Origin: Alphaproteobacteria bacterium
GTDB taxonomy: Bacteria > Pseudomonadota > Alphaproteobacteria > UBA8366
Length of the DNA stretch: 64,000 nucleotides
Direction: 5' to 3'
Assembly: GCA_965228425.1 (NCBI GenBank)
Contig: OZ245815.1
Span: forward strand, 2,957,234-3,021,233
Shown here: piece after piece, positions 25,394 to 40,022 of the stretch
Layout of the letters: the number at the start of each line of letters is the position of its first letter
Numbering within the stretch: the first letter of the stretch is position 1
Translations under genes and position numbers: made by a program
The notes under the pieces: model-generated
What the model was told of the DNA's origin: nothing
What the model saw: only the letters and a program-made list of their open reading frames with translations
Database searches by the model: none

Positions 25394-25409
25394 TTAACAG
25401 TGTGTTAAC
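25394..25409 (+). promoter_or_regulatory. perfect CtrA-type box TTAA-N7-TTAAC
   Basis: TTAAcagtgtgTTAAC lies ~165 nt upstream of OmpA-like paralogue 3. A TTAACCAT half-site follows at 25469-25476. Confidence 0.45.
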
Positions 25410-25572
25410 CCGCACGAGCAAGAATCCTGGGAACTAGTCACGGCGGATTATCTCGTGATGCCAGGATGTTAACCATATTTCGCAGGCTGGCGTCCGTGGC
25501 CTTTCAAGGGACGAGAGTGCCCCGCTTCGTATGGGCGTTCCGTACGTGAGTTTTCGCACGGAGGAAGAGAGA

Positions 25573-25998
25573 ATGAAGGTAAGAATGATTCTGTTCAGCA
25601 TCGCCACGCTCACCTTGTTGGGGGCGTGCCAAACGATGTCTGAATACGGCGACAAGATGAAGAGCTGGGTCGCTCTGGAAGAGGATAAGAAATACGTTGT
25701 CTACTTCCGGTCCAACTCTACCGCATTGACCGAATCGTCCGAAGGCACGCTGTATGACGTCATGCAGCAAATCCGCCAGGACAAGGTCGAGAAAGTGCGG
25801 GTCGTCGCCTATACCGACAGTAAGGGAAGCCCGAAATATAACCAGCAGCTTTCGATGCGACGGGCCGAGTCGATCAAAAAACGTCTATCGACCAGCGGAG
25901 CCGATGCGATCGAGGTCGCCGGTGCCGGCGAGACGGACGCGACAAGTTCCGTCAGTGGTGAAAAGGCCCGTCGGGCTGAAATTTTTCTCAATAAATAA
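25573..25998 (+). CDS. OmpA-like lipoprotein, paralogue 3 (short, no poly-Lys)
   Basis: GGAGGAAGAGAGA SD. Lipobox LLGAC. YVVYFRSNSTALT..., VAYTDSKGSPKYNQQLSMRRA, RRAEIFLNK. Confidence 0.75.
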   Translation: MKVRMILFSIATLTLLGACQTMSEYGDKMKSWVALEEDKKYVVYFRSNSTALTESSEGTLYDVMQQIRQDKVEKVRVVAYTDSKGSPKYNQQLSMRRAESIKKRLSTSGADAIEVAGAGETDATSSVSGEKARRAEIFLNK

Positions 25999-34869: not shown

Positions 34870-35928
34870 CTATTGATCGGGCATCGTACGGGGCTGTTTG
34901 CCGTCGGCGATGCGCTGAATATCCTCGAAACGCTCGCGGGGCATGGGAATACCCGCTTCGAGCGATTCCGCCATGCTCTGGGCTTCCGGTTCGCCGGGAA
35001 TCAGGACGGGAAGCGCCGGGTCCGCCGCCGGGGTGGCCTTGATGGTTCGGCAGAATGTCTCCATTTGCGCGTGGTAGGCCTCCTCGCCGAGCAGGCGGGC
35101 GGGATCCAGGGCGATGAAGAAATGAGCCACCCCTTGTGGTGTCTCATCCCGGCGAAAGAGTTGATTAACGCCCGTGGCCGCCTGACCACCGGAGAGCACC
35201 CCCGACAGCATGTCCACCGCCAATGCCAATCCGTAGCCCTTGTGGCCGCCGATCGGCAGCACCCAGCCCTTCATTCCAGCCAGCGGATCGGTCGTTAGAT
35301 GCCCGTCGGCATCCGCGGCCCAGCCTTCCGGGATCGTTTCGCCAGCTTCGTGGGCGTGACGCAGTTTGCTGTACGCGACCACGCTCTGCGCCATATCGAG
35401 GATGAAATCGGGACCGTCGCGGCGGGGTGCGGCGATCCCGATCGGGTTGTTGCCATGGGCGAGAGCCGCGCCGCGCCACGGCGCCATGACCGGCTGCGTA
35501 TTCGTGCCCATGATCGAAACCAAGCCGGCGTCGCAGGCGCGCGCCGCATAGGGGGCGACCGGGCCGAAATGGTGACTGTTGCGGCACCCGACATAGGCCA
35601 TGCCGCTTTCCTTGGCTAATCGGATGGCGGCTGCGACGCCGCGGCTGCCGATGACCGGTCCCATGCCGTTCCCGCCGTCGATAATGGCCAGGCAGGGCGA
35701 CCGTTCTTCGACCGTAATCTCGGGATCGGCAACGATCGCACCGTCCAGGATGCGCTGACAGTAGATGATGACGCGGCGGGTTCCGTGCGTGCTGATGCCC
35801 ATCAGGTCGCCGACCACGAGGATATCGGCGGCCGCGTCGGCGTCGTCGGCGGGTACGCCGACACGCTCGAAAGCGGCGCGGCAAACGGTGTGAAGGTCGT
35901 CTTTCGGGATGCGGATGATGTCGGTCAC
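34870..35928 (-). CDS. Ldh_2-family (malate/L-lactate/sulfolactate dehydrogenase type 2) oxidoreductase
   Basis: GISTHGTRR, NSHHFGP and GGHKGYGLA motifs. GTG 35928 has an upstream GGAAG. The ORF is open to 36021. Confidence 0.8.
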   Translation of the reverse strand: MTDIIRIPKDDLHTVCRAAFERVGVPADDADAAADILVVGDLMGISTHGTRRVIIYCQRILDGAIVADPEITVEERSPCLAIIDGGNGMGPVIGSRGVAAAIRLAKESGMAYVGCRNSHHFGPVAPYAARACDAGLVSIMGTNTQPVMAPWRGAALAHGNNPIGIAAPRRDGPDFILDMAQSVVAYSKLRHAHEAGETIPEGWAADADGHLTTDPLAGMKGWVLPIGGHKGYGLALAVDMLSGVLSGGQAATGVNQLFRRDETPQGVAHFFIALDPARLLGEEAYHAQMETFCRTIKATPAADPALPVLIPGEPEAQSMAESLEAGIPMPRERFEDIQRIADGKQPRTMPDQ

Positions 35929-36003
35929 GATGATCTTCCAAAGCGGGGTATGGCGTAAAAGGCTATGCGTTCGGCCGCGACGGCGCAAGACGAGGGGGGA
36001 CGA

Positions 36004-36036
36004 ATGAAAAACGGGCCCCATCGAAATGGGGCCCGT
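36004..36036 (-). terminator. intrinsic terminator closing the membrane-protein/vWA operon
   Basis: The minus strand reads ACGGGCCCCA-uuucgau-GGGGCCCGU followed by UUUUUCAUU. Confidence 0.65.
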
Positions 36037-36072
36037 GAGTCGGTCGAAATTTTCTTGAACGTCCGGGAGTGG

Positions 36073-36723
36073 TTAGTTCAACAAAACATTATCCAATCGG
36101 TCGAGATCGTTGATGACCTGCCATGCGCCGCCGCCGGATTCGACGCGGCCCTGCCAGTTATTCAAGCGGTTCATGTAATCCCGCGGATCGACGTTGTCGC
36201 TGCGCAATTTGGTGACGTTGAGCGCAACGACATTGACTCCGTCGAGCGGCAGGGAGATGTCGCGGATATATCCCTTCTTCAGGTCTTCGGCGAGATCCGA
36301 GAAGATCAGGATTGTCTTATTCCCCGGATTCTTCTCGGTCAGGTATTCCGAAGCCTGCAGCAGGCCGCCGGTAATATCCGTATACCGCGCCGGTCGGACC
36401 CGCTTGACGAAGGTGTTGATGGCATCGCGAAACTGGCGTTTCTCCTTGTTTGCGACGCTCGGCCGATCGTCGAAGGTGGCCTTCGCGACGATGTCCTTCT
36501 CGCTGAAGCTGCCGGTGTCGATCCGGGCGACGGCGAAGGAGTCGCCGGGATCCAGACGCGTCAGGATCACGTTGATGATCTGCTGCGCCTTCCGGAGCTC
36601 CTCGGTATAAGTCCCCGACGTATCGAGCAGCAGGTAGACGCCGCGGTTCTGCGGAGTCGCCTCGCCGCAGGCGGTCAACGCCAACAGGCCCAGAGCCGCA
36701 ATACATGAGGTCAGACGTTTCAT
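36073..36723 (-). CDS. von Willebrand factor A (vWA) domain lipoprotein
   Basis: Lipobox LALTAC. MIDAS-like residues LLLDTSGT, YTDITGG and LIFSDL. The ATG overlaps the upstream gene's stop (TAATG). This is the real 3' part of the 508-aa track ORF. Confidence 0.75.
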   Translation of the reverse strand: MKRLTSCIAALGLLALTACGEATPQNRGVYLLLDTSGTYTEELRKAQQIINVILTRLDPGDSFAVARIDTGSFSEKDIVAKATFDDRPSVANKEKRQFRDAINTFVKRVRPARYTDITGGLLQASEYLTEKNPGNKTILIFSDLAEDLKKGYIRDISLPLDGVNVVALNVTKLRSDNVDPRDYMNRLNNWQGRVESGGGAWQVINDLDRLDNVLLN

Positions 36724-38168
36724 TACAGCACCTCTCTTGCTGTTGCCGGATCGTGGTCGTCCCGCATATCGGCGTGATGCGCCTTGATACGCCGTTCGAG
36801 CCACAGCGGCAGGAAGATGATCATGTCGTACAGGTCCACCAGGATCGCGCCCATGTGATGGAACACGCTGCCCAGCAGCCGCAGGAAGAGCGCCAGCGCC
36901 CGCATCAGGGCGCCTCCGACGAGTCCGAGAACGGTCCGGAGCGAGTGCACGAAGGTTTCCAGCGGAATTGCGACGAACACCAAGGCGAAGGGCAGGATGA
37001 AGCCCATCCCCATTTGAGCCGCCGTGGTGATCCACACGAAGTTGGATGCATCCACGGCCAAGCTCTGCTGGGCGCCGCGTAGCAAGGCGCTGGTGGCCAA
37101 CTCGTCCTGTAACAGGATTTCCCGCATATAGGCGAGGCCGGCCTCGACGCTTGCCAACAGGAACAGGATCGAGAAGGTCGTCCAGATCATGCGGACGCGC
37201 ATCTTGTCGGGCAGCGCGCTGATGACCGGGAACAGTCGGGTGATCCGAAGCGATTCCATCAGGAACAGCCCCATGGATATCTCGACCATGATGATCACCA
37301 GCGCGGCGATATCGGAAATCTTGAAGGCACCGATCGTGTTGTTGCCGCCGACCATTTCGGCCATCGGGCGCGCGATCAGATGGAAGTTGATCATGGCGCC
37401 GCCGATCGCGATAGCCAACACAAGCGCGGACACGAAGAACTGCACCAGCGACGATGAAGACAGCATGCGCGCTGCGCGATCCGACCCTTGGAGGATGTTC
37501 TCGTACTCCTCCATATGGCGGTCGATGACCTTCGCGCGATGCAGCAGGGTATTGACGTTTTTGTCCGTCGCCGAAAGCTGCTGCTGAATCTTGCGCCAAT
37601 GGGGCAGCATGTTCCGCAGGAATTTGTGGCGGTCCCGCGTGGCGTCGCGATACTGATCACGGGCCTTCTGCTGCGCTTCCACCAGGGATTCGTGAATCTT
37701 GTCGAGAATATTCGCGACCATCGGGTCGCCTTTCGACGGGATGTTCGCCACCGCCTCGACGGCGTTGGCCCATCCGGGCGGCGTCGGAGGGACTTCGGCA
37801 CTCTGCCTATGGTCTTCCTCGACGCTTGCGATCTGTTCCTCGATCTTGCGTTGCAGGGCCGGGCATTCGGCCAGGTCCCGCTGAACGGCTGCGTCCATTC
37901 GCTCGAATTCACGCTCGATGATATGTTCCGCGGCTTCGCGCCCGGCAGCCAGCAGAACTTCGCGGTTCCGTTCGGTCATGCGCTTTTCCGCCTTGAAGAC
38001 GGAGTGCGCGGCAAGACGTAACGTCGCGTGCAGGACGCGCGCCAGTGACATGATGGCGTTATGGGCGGGTGCCCGGGTCAGATATAGGGCGATGACTGCG
38101 AGTAGTATGACCGTGAGCCAGGTCAAAACGGATCCTGACCCCGCCGACAGCGAGTTGAAGAACGGCAT
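36723..38168 (-). CDS. polytopic membrane protein with a ~200-aa charged coiled-coil insert; unknown function
   Basis: 481 aa counted from ATG 38168, which has GGAGGGGG upstream. One N-terminal TM helix, a long E/R/K/Q-rich helical region, then ~6 TM helices. I recognise no family motif. Confidence 0.7.
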   Translation of the reverse strand: MPFFNSLSAGSGSVLTWLTVILLAVIALYLTRAPAHNAIMSLARVLHATLRLAAHSVFKAEKRMTERNREVLLAAGREAAEHIIEREFERMDAAVQRDLAECPALQRKIEEQIASVEEDHRQSAEVPPTPPGWANAVEAVANIPSKGDPMVANILDKIHESLVEAQQKARDQYRDATRDRHKFLRNMLPHWRKIQQQLSATDKNVNTLLHRAKVIDRHMEEYENILQGSDRAARMLSSSSLVQFFVSALVLAIAIGGAMINFHLIARPMAEMVGGNNTIGAFKISDIAALVIIMVEISMGLFLMESLRITRLFPVISALPDKMRVRMIWTTFSILFLLASVEAGLAYMREILLQDELATSALLRGAQQSLAVDASNFVWITTAAQMGMGFILPFALVFVAIPLETFVHSLRTVLGLVGGALMRALALFLRLLGSVFHHMGAILVDLYDMIIFLPLWLERRIKAHHADMRDDHDPATAREVL

Positions 38169-38322
38169 TGTTAACCCCCTCCATGACCGGTCGACCGTGG
38201 CCATTTGACCATCGTTCGCCAGTCACCCTCCGACATTCTCCTAGCCGAATGATTGGCCGATATTGATAACAATTCGTTAATTAAAACTAAGGTTTCGTTA
38301 ATTTCGTGGTTAATCCGACTGA

Positions 38323-38375
38323 CTCAATATTCAGTGAAATCAAATATATACGATGTATTTGAAATTCAATATTGA
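38323..38375. promoter_or_regulatory. 53-bp imperfect palindrome in an AT-rich island upstream of the membrane/vWA operon
   Basis: The arms CTCAATATT (38323-31) and AATATTGAG (38367-75) match perfectly, with a further CAAATA/TATTTG inner match. The element is centred on TATATA. TTCGTTAATT occurs twice, 21 bp apart, at 38273 and 38294. Confidence 0.45.
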
Positions 38376-38553
38376 GTTAACTTTCATGAATACTGTCCCA
38401 TCCCTTAGCGGCGAGAATAAGGCGAGACTACGGCGGGAGCGGGAATTGCGGGGACGGTACCCGGTCTGGCCCGGTCCCTTTCGGTGTCGGCGGGACGGGG
38501 CGGGGAGCGGGCAAAGTCCTGCCGGCTCCCCGGGTTTGCGGCAGTCGGCTTGA

Positions 38554-39327
38554 CTACCGGCTCGCCATGACACCGCCGTCCACCGGCAAAATCGTGCCGG
38601 TGATCCAGGATGCTTCGTCGGAGGCCAGGAACAGAATAGCGCCGACCACATCGTCCGGCTGTCCGTTTCGGCCCAGCGGATGGAAATCATTGAAGGTCGG
38701 TAGAACGGCTTTGACTTCGTCGGGTGTCAAGAACGTGCCAAAAACCGGGGTTTCCACCACCGCCGGCGCGACCGCGTTGATCCGGATCTTCGACGGGGCG
38801 AGCTCGACCGCCAAATTTCGGACCATGGCGTGTACGCCGGCTTTCGCCGCCGAGTAAGCGCTGGAAGGGGTCGCTGTGACGGCGCGTTCCGCCCACATGG
38901 ACCCCGTTTGGACAATTGCACCGCCGCCGCGCTGTTCCATCGCCCTGGCCGCTGCCTGAGCCATGAAGAACTTCCCCTTCAGTATGGTCGTGATGTAGCG
39001 GTCGAAATCCTCCTCCGTATGGTCGAGAAAGGGCGTCGGTTTGAAGATTCCGGCATTGTTTAACAGGATGTCGACGCCACCGAAGTGGGTATGGGCGATA
39101 TCTACGGCACGCTCGCCGGTTTCCGGATGGCCGACATCGGCCGCCAAGGTGGCGACGTGTTTACCGGTCGGGTCGACCGCTTTGGCGGCGTCCGTAATGA
39201 CGTCTTCGCGGCGGCCAAGAATAACGGCCGAACCGCCTTGTTTCACGAATCGTTGGGCCGCCCGGAAACCAATGCCGGTTCCGCCGCCCGTTATGATCGC
39301 AACTTTGTTTTCGAATTTGGTCATCAT
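38554..39327 (-). CDS. SDR-family oxidoreductase
   Basis: VAIITGGGTGIG, NNAG, and YSAAKAG as the catalytic YxxxK. Confidence 0.9.
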   Translation of the reverse strand: MMTKFENKVAIITGGGTGIGFRAAQRFVKQGGSAVILGRREDVITDAAKAVDPTGKHVATLAADVGHPETGERAVDIAHTHFGGVDILLNNAGIFKPTPFLDHTEEDFDRYITTILKGKFFMAQAAARAMEQRGGGAIVQTGSMWAERAVTATPSSAYSAAKAGVHAMVRNLAVELAPSKIRINAVAPAVVETPVFGTFLTPDEVKAVLPTFNDFHPLGRNGQPDDVVGAILFLASDEASWITGTILPVDGGVMASR

Positions 39328-39345
39328 CTCTCGCTTTGTGAGTTA

Positions 39346-39408
39346 ATCTATCGATAGATAGGGAGCTAGGCCTTGCTGAGATGCAATTCAATGCCTATCT
39401 ATCGATAG
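39346..39408. promoter_or_regulatory. two copies of the palindromic core CTATCGATAG in the divergent SDR/TetR intergenic region (candidate TetR operators)
   Basis: ATCTATCGATAGAT at 39346-39359 is a 14-bp perfect palindrome. CTATCGATAG recurs at 39399-39408, so the cores are 51 bp apart. Confidence 0.5.
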
Positions 39409-39443
39409 GTCATAACAAGATCGTGAGAAGTGAGGGTGTAAGG

Positions 39444-40022
39444 ATGCCTGAGATGACGAGCACACGAGACCGTATCATCGCGGCGGCCGAGGTCCGCATG
39501 CGTGACGGCGGCTATCACGGGTTCTCGTTCCGGGAGATTGCGGCGGACGTCGGCATTAAGAGCGCAAGTGTGCACCATCATTTTCCGGCCAAGGAAGACT
39601 TGGCGTTCGCCGTTGTCGACGGGTACACGGAGCGCTTTATCGAGACGCTTGGCGATCCCGCCGATCCCGGCAAGAGCCCGGGAGCTCTGATTGACCGCTA
39701 CATTGATTTGTTTCGCCGGGCGTTGATCGTAGAACGCCGGATGTGCCTATGCGGCCTATTGGGATCGGAGGTAAAGGCATTGCCCGATCGGGTCAGCGTG
39801 GGCACCCGAACGTTCTTCCAGCGTCATATCGAGTGGCTGTCCAAGGTCTTTCGGTCGGCCGATCCGGCGGCAACCCAAGATGTGATCGACGCCCGGGCGA
39901 TGCGGTTCGTTGCGACGCTCGAAGGCGCACTTTTGGTCGCTCAGAGCCTTGATGAGCCGGAGGTGTTCGAAAGGATCGTCAGCGCAACCTTAGCGACCCT
40001 TGATATCGGAAGTTCGGAGTAG
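39444..40022 (+). CDS. TetR/AcrR-family transcriptional regulator
   Basis: RDRIIAAAEVRMRDGGYHGFSFREIAADVGIKSASVHHHFPAKEDL is the TetR helix-turn-helix (HTH). Confidence 0.85.
   Translation: MPEMTSTRDRIIAAAEVRMRDGGYHGFSFREIAADVGIKSASVHHHFPAKEDLAFAVVDGYTERFIETLGDPADPGKSPGALIDRYIDLFRRALIVERRMCLCGLLGSEVKALPDRVSVGTRTFFQRHIEWLSKVFRSADPAATQDVIDARAMRFVATLEGALLVAQSLDEPEVFERIVSATLATLDIGSSE

Follow-up and report, generated by a model that had tools for sequence, protein, structure and literature searches.

The window analysed here (the whole 64-kb stretch of the alphaproteobacterial contig OZ245815.1 under study) carries two adjoining genes on its minus strand. The first encodes a 481-amino-acid (aa) membrane protein, and the second encodes a 216-aa lipoprotein with a von Willebrand factor type A (vWA) domain and its metal ion-dependent adhesion site (MIDAS). 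The TAA of the membrane-protein gene (36725-36723) and the ATG of the lipoprotein gene (36723-36721) overlap by one base to form TAATG, so the coordinates confirm the overlap described in the original prediction, which was made from the sequence alone. The leader upstream of the pair (38150-38449) has a GC content of 0.44, compared to about 0.60-0.65 around it, and an intrinsic terminator follows the lipoprotein gene (Table 1), in agreement with the AT-rich upstream region and strong terminator of that prediction. No second terminator-like hairpin lies within 35800-38700. The two genes themselves have a GC content of about 0.6, the same as their flanks.

The linkage of the two genes extends to other genomes. 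The 80 best loci come from genomes of different species. In 79 of them the membrane gene is followed at once, on the same strand, by the vWA gene; in the exception the contig ends 250 bp past the membrane gene. Co-occurrence outside this genome had been left to a synteny check, and the genes are paired in all 79 testable loci. In 48 of 69 loci the stop codon of the first gene overlaps the start codon of the second, as ATGA or TAATG. The membrane protein has more than 5,600 homologues and the vWA protein more than 8,000, and an exhaustive search gives 767 clusters of the membrane protein at 50% identity. With one genome counted per species, at least 570 species of Alpha-, Gamma- and Zetaproteobacteria have a gene for it, most of them represented by metagenome-assembled genomes; the two cultured hosts are Thiohalophilus thiocyanatoxydans DSM 16326 and Microbulbifer taiwanensis LMG 26125. 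Both proteins are about 60% identical between Alpha- and Gammaproteobacteria. Searches of 72,556 plasmids, 50,697 phages and 2.9 million viral contigs revealed no relatives of the pair. No third gene is conserved in the 80 loci, and the neighbour clusters, which include FliA, Che and Fli proteins, cytochrome oxidase assembly proteins, transporters and SPOR proteins, are lineage-specific. The pair is a vertically inherited core-type module, neither a mobile nor a defence element. Of the autonomous inserted module first proposed, the self-contained and translationally coupled character stands, but a mobile origin does not, given base composition like the flanks, the lack of plasmid, phage or viral relatives, and cross-class conservation at the level of housekeeping genes.

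The lipoprotein was originally read as having a complete vWA/MIDAS signature, and this is well supported. The MIDAS residues D34-x-S36-x-T38, T115 and D143 are invariant in an alignment of 30 homologues, as is the lipobox cysteine, Cys19, and the DTSGT motif is present in 69 of 69 automatically scored loci; lipobox variants are present in the other scored loci too. The window lipoprotein matches Pfam VWA_2 slightly below the 27-bit cut-off (24.1 bits, E 5.9e-5) and Pfam VWA below cut-off (E 4.2e-4), and VWA_2 is matched by all 30 aligned homologues at E <= 0.01 (best 3.7e-9). A PDB profile search with the lipoprotein returned only TRAP at E 0.6, and so no sequence-close solved structure. The mature lipoprotein is a bare 197-residue vWA domain, conserved over nearly its full length (mean column identity 78% in the alignment). 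Only about 8 residues lie between Cys19 and the first beta-strand of the domain. A tether this short must keep the vWA domain at the surface of whichever membrane the lipid is anchored in. Natural fusions of the two proteins, of 659 and 685 aa (P0249 cluster), occur on several contigs, and run from the membrane-protein C-terminus through the lipoprotein signal peptide and lipobox into the vWA domain, with the MIDAS and the 8-residue spacing kept. Given the tether and these fusions, the lipoprotein probably resides at the outer face of the inner membrane.

The membrane protein was modelled with AlphaFold, from a 42-sequence alignment (predicted local distance difference test, pLDDT, 72) and from 131 sequences reaching down to 26% identity (pLDDT 92, predicted template modelling score 0.75). 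In the model an N-terminal transmembrane helix (TM1) leads into an antiparallel, intramolecular hairpin of two helices (32-123 and 149-226) with a length of about 12-13 nm. The hairpin is followed by TM2-TM5 at about 241-265, 286-306, 326-348 and 379-399, with predicted periplasmic loops at 266-285 and 349-378 and a basic cytoplasmic loop at 307-325, and then by two C-terminal helices. The N-terminal TM helix and charged helical segment of the original prediction are retained, but its roughly six further TM helices become four strong ones and two weaker C-terminal segments. At the hairpin tip, W133 is the single invariant column among the 131 sequences, and P127, P128 and P131 are conserved at 82-89%. 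Near the C-terminus E404, R411, R430, Y447-D448 and E458 are conserved at 85-96%. E296 and E342 are predicted to lie within the membrane, beside the conserved N261 (TM2) and Q385 (TM5). In the paired subfamily N261, E296, E342, R349-E/D350 and Q385 are invariant or nearly so, and in the periplasmic loop motif P268, E271, M272, V273 and G274 are invariant, with slight variation at 269-270 (M/L, A/S/G). The same motif (268-274) is variable in unpaired members.

Loop charges suggest the topology. Averaged over the 131 sequences, the net charge is -1.0 in the N-tail, +2.9 in the 20 residues after TM1, -0.1 in the TM2-3 loop, +2.6 in the TM3-4 loop and -2.1 in the TM4-5 loop; the N-tail averages 0.2 K+R and 1.1 D+E, and the C-tail is rich in K and R. 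By the positive-inside rule the hairpin is therefore placed in the cytoplasm and not in the periplasm, with the N-terminus predicted to be outside and the C-terminus inside. The two weakly hydrophobic C-terminal segments would either both span the membrane or neither. In the fusions the vWA domain is periplasmic only if the membrane-protein C-terminus is cytoplasmic, so the fusions agree with the predicted topology. With the hairpin in the cytoplasm, a periplasmic vWA domain would reach only two short loops of its partner.

The membrane protein belongs to a large family without detectable relatives. No Pfam, NCBIfam or PADLOC family was matched by the window protein, and a Pfam scan of 93 divergent members individually gave scattered coiled-coil noise and nothing consistent. 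DUF7341 is above cut-off in one homologue (P0022, 31.9 bits) and sub-threshold (E <= 1) in 4 of the 93 members; it was not taken as a family assignment, and it is a family of no known function. PDB profile searches with the 42- and 131-sequence alignments gave no credible match, the best being the AT1 receptor at E 0.002 and a methyl-accepting chemotaxis protein at E 0.02. Foldseek searches of the PDB with both AlphaFold models found nothing at E <= 1e-3. For MotA, ExbB and TolQ there is no Pfam match, and a PDB match to MotA (E 0.94) is restricted to the coiled coil. The 5:2 ion-driven motors (MotAB, ExbBD, TolQR, ZorAB) are also disfavoured by the partner, which has a cleavable lipoprotein signal peptide only and not the single TM helix with a conserved Asp of such motors. 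The statement in the original prediction that no family could be recognised for this protein thus holds after Pfam, NCBIfam, PADLOC, PDB profile and Foldseek searches, and profile searches did not place it in any well-characterised family.

The state of the two intramembrane Glu residues co-varies with that of the lipoprotein gene. Genomic context was examined for 12 distant lineages (Table 2). Both Glu residues are kept in all four sampled lineages with a MIDAS-intact lipoprotein, and one or both are lost in all eight lineages whose partner is absent, decayed or MIDAS-less. Several Glu-losing lineages are nearer to the window protein than Glu-retaining ones. When the diagnostic columns are left out, a neighbour-joining tree shows at least 13 changes in the state of the Glu pair, and the joint losses are therefore repeated events. 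The partner is the more conserved of the two proteins, with 59-60% identity against 36-41% for the membrane subunit. W133, R32, R180, E305 (E or D in every sequence), R324, E404 and D448 persist in all lineages. The hairpin and the conserved residues at the cytoplasmic face are also retained where the lipoprotein is missing, which suggests that an old core of hairpin and membrane domain gained the vWA subunit and the Glu pair later, as one input module.

Table 2. Residues at the two intramembrane Glu positions and state of the partner gene in 12 distant lineages
Lineage	Identity to window membrane protein	Residues at 296/342	Partner gene
P0392	36%	E/E	intact lipobox and MIDAS vWA gene, overlapping or abutting
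P0265	41%	E/E	intact lipobox and MIDAS vWA gene, overlapping or abutting
P0380	29%	E/E	intact lipobox and MIDAS vWA gene, overlapping or abutting
P0335	31%	E/E	intact lipobox and MIDAS vWA gene, overlapping or abutting
P0383	27%	Q/V	no partner
P0334	29%	A/S	no partner
P0281	35%	A/A	no partner; unrelated gene downstream
P0401	31%	E/Q	no partner
P0260	46%	G/G	no partner
P0264	41%	Q/G	no partner
P0262	42%	S/H	divergent lipoprotein, MIDAS residues gone
P0245	49%	Q/E	53-codon remnant, VQLLVDNSVIY

The best explanation, held tentatively and at somewhat less than an even chance, is that the genes encode two subunits of one divalent-cation-dependent inner-membrane complex. The lipoprotein would remain at the outer face of the inner membrane, and the coordination of the Mg2+, Ca2+ or Mn2+ bound at its MIDAS would be completed by an acidic side chain from the periplasmic loops of the membrane subunit. 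Candidates for this side chain are E271, in the P-M-x-E-M-V-G-G loop, and E/D350. The metal site would sit above the polar cluster N261, E296, E342 and Q385 in the outer half of the bilayer. Such an assembly could act as a cation-binding gate or sensor, either as a regulated cation path or as a cation-triggered conformational relay. Its state may be relayed via E305, R324, E404 and D448, at the cytoplasmic face of the membrane, to the hairpin, the tip of which would touch a cytoplasmic partner. The resemblance to sensor or gated-channel architectures seen in the original prediction fits the co-variation of the buried Glu residues with the MIDAS partner.

The closest working analogy is the alpha2-delta subunit of CaV channels. 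Alpha2-delta is a lipid-anchored MIDAS vWA subunit that completes its metal coordination with an acidic residue from an extracellular loop of the channel. Like alpha2-delta, and like CLCA1 with TMEM16A, the window lipoprotein appears to be an extracytoplasmic vWA protein with a complete MIDAS and a lipid anchor, auxiliary to a polytopic membrane protein. However, the membrane partners are unrelated in sequence and fold and the bacterial lipoprotein has no Cache domains, so the analogy would be one of mechanism and not of family membership. Inner-membrane-associated vWA/MIDAS proteins of bacteria are also found in the MoxR-vWA/Bat operons (BatA/BatB, ViaA-RavA, BB0172/BB0173), but these have a TM of their own or are cytoplasmic, and they use a MoxR AAA+ ATPase and DUF58 proteins, none of which is encoded in the 80 loci.

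A local likeness to CorA/Mrs2-type magnesium channels (2-TM GxN) was also considered. In both, a long cytoplasmic helix continues into a TM that ends periplasmically in Asn-Phe (I-N261-F vs G-M-N-F), followed by a short acidic loop (P-M-x-E vs M-P-E-L), a return TM and a basic cytoplasmic end. The likeness ends with this local layout: the proteins have different numbers of TM helices and different overall domain plans. Homology was rejected, since hhalign against Thermotoga maritima CorA gives a probability of 0.6% and the motif is A-x-I-N-F, not G-M-N. CorA is also absent from the Pfam and PDB profile matches and from the 50 Foldseek matches listed.

Several points weigh against a cation-dependent complex. 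PDB profile searches, Foldseek and the hhalign comparison to CorA show no likeness to a known channel or transporter. Any pore would be conjectural, and the complex does not account for the long hairpin. The choice of the MIDAS-completing residue is a guess, and E271 is kept in some unpaired members. Residue +2 of the lipoprotein varies (G/S/D/E) among homologues, which by sequence rules leaves outer-membrane sorting open. The co-variation comes from 12 sampled distant lineages and one large clade, and shared ancestry may contribute to it. A bolder form of the proposal would make the pair a new class of bacterial divalent-cation channel or sensor, with a new fold and an intramembrane Glu pair, gated and capped by a lipid-anchored MIDAS subunit and signalling via a 13-nm cytoplasmic hairpin. 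Such a class would be common among environmental, metagenome-derived Alpha-, Gamma- and Zetaproteobacteria. This is rather unlikely.

Alternatively, the pair may be an integrin-like anchor, in which the vWA domain captures an external envelope ligand through its MIDAS and the membrane protein serves as anchor or scaffold to a cytoplasmic structure via the hairpin. The ligand could be an outer-membrane protein, a peptidoglycan-associated protein or an exopolymer carboxylate, the coupling could run outside-in or inside-out, and the buried Glu residues would be structural or regulatory only. MIDAS domains typically bind an acidic residue from a separate ligand, as such an anchor would do, and the conservation of nearly the entire vWA sequence is in keeping with it. 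The hairpin tip, with W133, is the most conserved element of the family, suggesting a cytoplasmic binding partner. There is a precedent in CglB, a vWA outer-membrane lipoprotein adhesin in Myxococcus gliding motility (PMC9946355). CglB is likewise a bacterial lipoprotein that is essentially a vWA domain with a MIDAS, partnered with a trans-envelope machine, but it is a larger protein of the multi-gene Glt system that is displayed on the outer membrane and attaches to the substratum. In contrast, the window pair has an 8-residue tether, a single inner-membrane partner, and fusions that tie the vWA domain to the inner membrane. Tether and fusions would keep the domain against the inner-membrane surface, and the 80 loci have no conserved third gene for a ligand. 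An anchor also leaves the joint loss of the intramembrane Glu and the MIDAS partner unexplained. It is unlikely, though still worth considering beside the cation-dependent complex.

The pair might instead be an envelope accessory of a motility or polar-organelle regulon, expressed with flagellar and chemotaxis genes and acting at or near that apparatus. In 18 of the 80 loci, all from one group of Gammaproteobacteria, the pair lies directly after fliA (NCBIfam FliA, 296 bits), which is preceded by cheR-cheD-cheB or fliG-fliK. Of these 18 loci, 6 have a sigma-28-like promoter (score at least 10 of 12) ahead of the pair, compared to 3 of the 61 other loci and 4.8% of background windows. In the alphaproteobacterial clade of the window, the leader contains an array of four half-sites that resembles the CtrA box (Table 1). 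They start at 38313, 38301, 38290 and 38280, with spacings of 12, 11 and 10 nt, and the block is near-invariant in L001-L003 and partly retained in L004, L005 and L028. The pattern TTAAC-N6-TTAR occurs at two places in the window, against 0.14 expected. CtrA would be the regulator, judged by its published consensus. Both the promoters and the CtrA box were recognised by consensus alone, and both links are weak leads that concern subsets of lineages. The other 62 loci differ in context, for example with cytochrome oxidase assembly genes or transporters, and some hosts, such as Microbulbifer, are described as non-motile. A profile match of residues 148-225 to a chemoreceptor hairpin in the PDB is not significant (the E 0.02 match given above), and Pfam MCPsignal is not matched. 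No link of such a pair to FliA or CtrA, and no described pair of a vWA lipoprotein and a coiled-coil membrane protein, was found in the literature. A motility role is improbable.

The second place of the CtrA-like pattern is a perfect TTAA-N7-TTAAC at 25394-25408, with a TTAACCAT half-site at about 25469. It lies upstream of a 155-aa OmpA-domain lipoprotein gene (25531-25998, plus strand).

A role in shaping or stabilising the membrane, as a scaffold of the prominin/TTYH or PspA type with the lipoprotein as a periplasmic brace, is about as improbable as the motility role. The best Foldseek matches of the pLDDT 92 model are TTYH1-3, Pfam Prominin is matched below cut-off in 8 of the 93 members (best E 0.023), and one homologue carries the JGI label 'phage shock protein A', the sole hint toward PspA. 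In TTYH and prominin pentaspan proteins, too, TM helices extend into very long helical hairpins. However, the TTYH matches are non-significant (E 0.03-0.2, lowest 0.029), with TM-scores <= 0.2 and a root-mean-square deviation of about 40 A. The hairpins of TTYH and prominin are extracellular and lie between other TM pairs, whereas the window protein has its hairpin between TM1 and TM2, on the predicted cytoplasmic side. Pfam PspA_IM30 is matched neither by the window protein nor among the 25 most frequent of the 148 families matched by the 93 members at E <= 1. A scaffold would also leave the co-variation of Glu pair and MIDAS unexplained.

The original prediction also mentioned conflict or stress modules, but an anti-phage role is highly improbable: vWA domains are found in several conflict systems (PMC7159879) and the unit is compact with its own terminator, yet PADLOC gives nothing for the vWA protein and only a weak LeoA match (E 0.13) for the membrane protein, MoxR/AAA+, nuclease or other effector neighbours are absent from the 80 loci, whose contexts are not defence islands, plasmid, phage and viral-contig relatives are lacking, and conservation is very high and uniform with base composition like the flanks. 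Any defence role is thus unlikely.

The features of the locus are collected in Table 1. An alternative ATG at 38204 would give a 493-aa version of the membrane protein, but it is missing from three close relatives. Because that ATG is not conserved while the Shine-Dalgarno sequence GGAGGGGG and the ATG at 38168 are, the 481-aa start is taken as correct and the longer version was dropped.

Table 1. Features of the two-gene locus (window positions; aa, residues of the encoded protein)
Feature	Position	Strand	Basis or remark
Leader/promoter block, four in-phase TTAAC/TTAG half-sites	38225-38315	minus	resembles CtrA box
Shine-Dalgarno sequence GGAGGGGG	38175-38182	minus	kept in six alphaproteobacterial relatives
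Membrane-protein coding sequence	36723-38168	minus	481 aa; open reading frame (ORF) list and sequence
TM1 (aa 14-30)	38079-38129	minus	hydropathy peak 2.15; predicted N-out, C-in
Antiparallel helical hairpin (aa 32-226)	37491-38075	minus	AlphaFold, pLDDT mostly >90
Hairpin tip (aa 124-148), Pro-rich PPxPPxW with Trp133	37725-37799	minus	conservation
Core membrane domain TM2-TM5 (aa 241-399)	36972-37448	minus	four hydropathy peaks >2.0
Periplasmic loop motif P268-M-A-E271-M-V-G274 (aa 268-274)	37347-37367	minus	candidate MIDAS-metal docking site
Glu296 codon, mid-TM3	37281-37283	minus	E in 91/131, Q in 16/131
Glu342 codon, TM4 outer half	37143-37145	minus	E in 92/131, Q in 13/131
C-terminal helices (aa 400-469) and basic tail	36762-36971	minus	helices 400-450 and 452-469; hydropathy 1.4-1.7
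vWA lipoprotein coding sequence	36073-36723	minus	216 aa; ORF list and sequence
Lipobox Cys19 (LALTAC; L-T-A-C)	36667-36669	minus	invariant in 30 homologues
MIDAS D34-T-S36-G-T38; T115; D143	36610-36624; 36379-36381; 36295-36297	minus	invariant in alignment
Intrinsic terminator	36001-36036	minus	hairpin 36036-36011 with 11-bp stem, 8 G-C pairs and 4-nt loop, then T-run

The neighbouring genes are unrelated to the pair. Downstream are an Ldh_2 dehydrogenase and a NupC-type nucleoside transporter, and upstream are an SDR, a TetR regulator and a BD-FAE alpha/beta hydrolase. The 383-aa ORF called for Ldh_2 begins within the terminator hairpin of the pair (35990-36021; MGPVFHSSP...), and its true start is probably further downstream, since the Pfam match begins only at residue 39. 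The SDR and TetR genes (38554-40022), which lie between the BD-FAE hydrolase and the pair, are absent from a 96%-identical relative (L001, 5570-6000), which keeps only a remnant of the TetR C-terminus (..LEGALLVAQSL..). Their absence therefore reflects either a recent deletion in L001 or an insertion in the window.

Two further conserved elements lie upstream of the membrane gene. A second non-coding block, GCAATTCCCGCTCCCGCCGTAGTCTCGCCTTATTCTCGCCGCTAAGGGATGGGACAGTATTCAT, at 38395-38460 (about 230-290 nt upstream), is near-identical in L001-L003 despite unalignable flanks, and its core is retained in L004, L005 and L028. On the plus strand the block opens exactly at an ATG (38386), reading MNTVPSLSGENKARL..., its variation looks codon-periodic, and the ORF diverges between genomes after about 22 codons. 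The block may contain a small divergent ORF, encode a leader peptide or serve as a binding site for a protein. An Rfam search of 35900-38700 gave sub-threshold chance matches only, and none for this block. The other element is a motif TCTGTGAACC-N5-8-GGTT (or TGAAC...GTTCA), which forms a short hairpin 90-160 nt upstream of the membrane gene at loci that include L019, L033, L037, L038, L050, L054, L061, L063, L064, L067, L070 and L072. It shows apparent compensatory changes (AACC/GGTT, AACT/AGTT), often lies 4-6 nt past a GCCGATAA-like -10 element, and may be an mRNA 5'-end stem-loop or an operator.

Two kinds of neighbour recur in other genomes. In two distinct groups of Gammaproteobacteria the pair is followed directly by a gene for a SPOR-domain protein. 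Two different proteins are concerned, a DamX-like coiled-coil protein and a Sel1+SPOR protein, in cluster 9 (L010, L012-L014, L016, L022, L041) and cluster 3 (17 gammaproteobacterial loci). This is possibly local synteny alone. In two lineages that lack the Glu pair (L081-L083, L096) the membrane gene is divergent and adjoins ppk (polyphosphate kinase) and ppx (exopolyphosphatase), which may reflect common descent or a functional tie to the storage of polyphosphate and cations.

The family is large and conserved across proteobacterial classes at the level of housekeeping genes, yet neither Pfam nor NCBIfam has a model for it. Literature searches revealed no described bacterial system that resembles its pairing with a MIDAS lipoprotein. 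The joint evolution of the two genes, as read from their sequences, points to a cation-dependent envelope complex, and the repeated joint loss of the buried Glu residues and the MIDAS partner points to concrete residues that can be tested. If this is true, the membrane protein would have a new fold, and the pair would represent a new bacterial use of the vWA/MIDAS domain, in which a lipid-anchored subunit assists an inner-membrane device. Lipid-anchored MIDAS auxiliary subunits, so far known mainly from animal ion channels, would then gain a prokaryotic counterpart.

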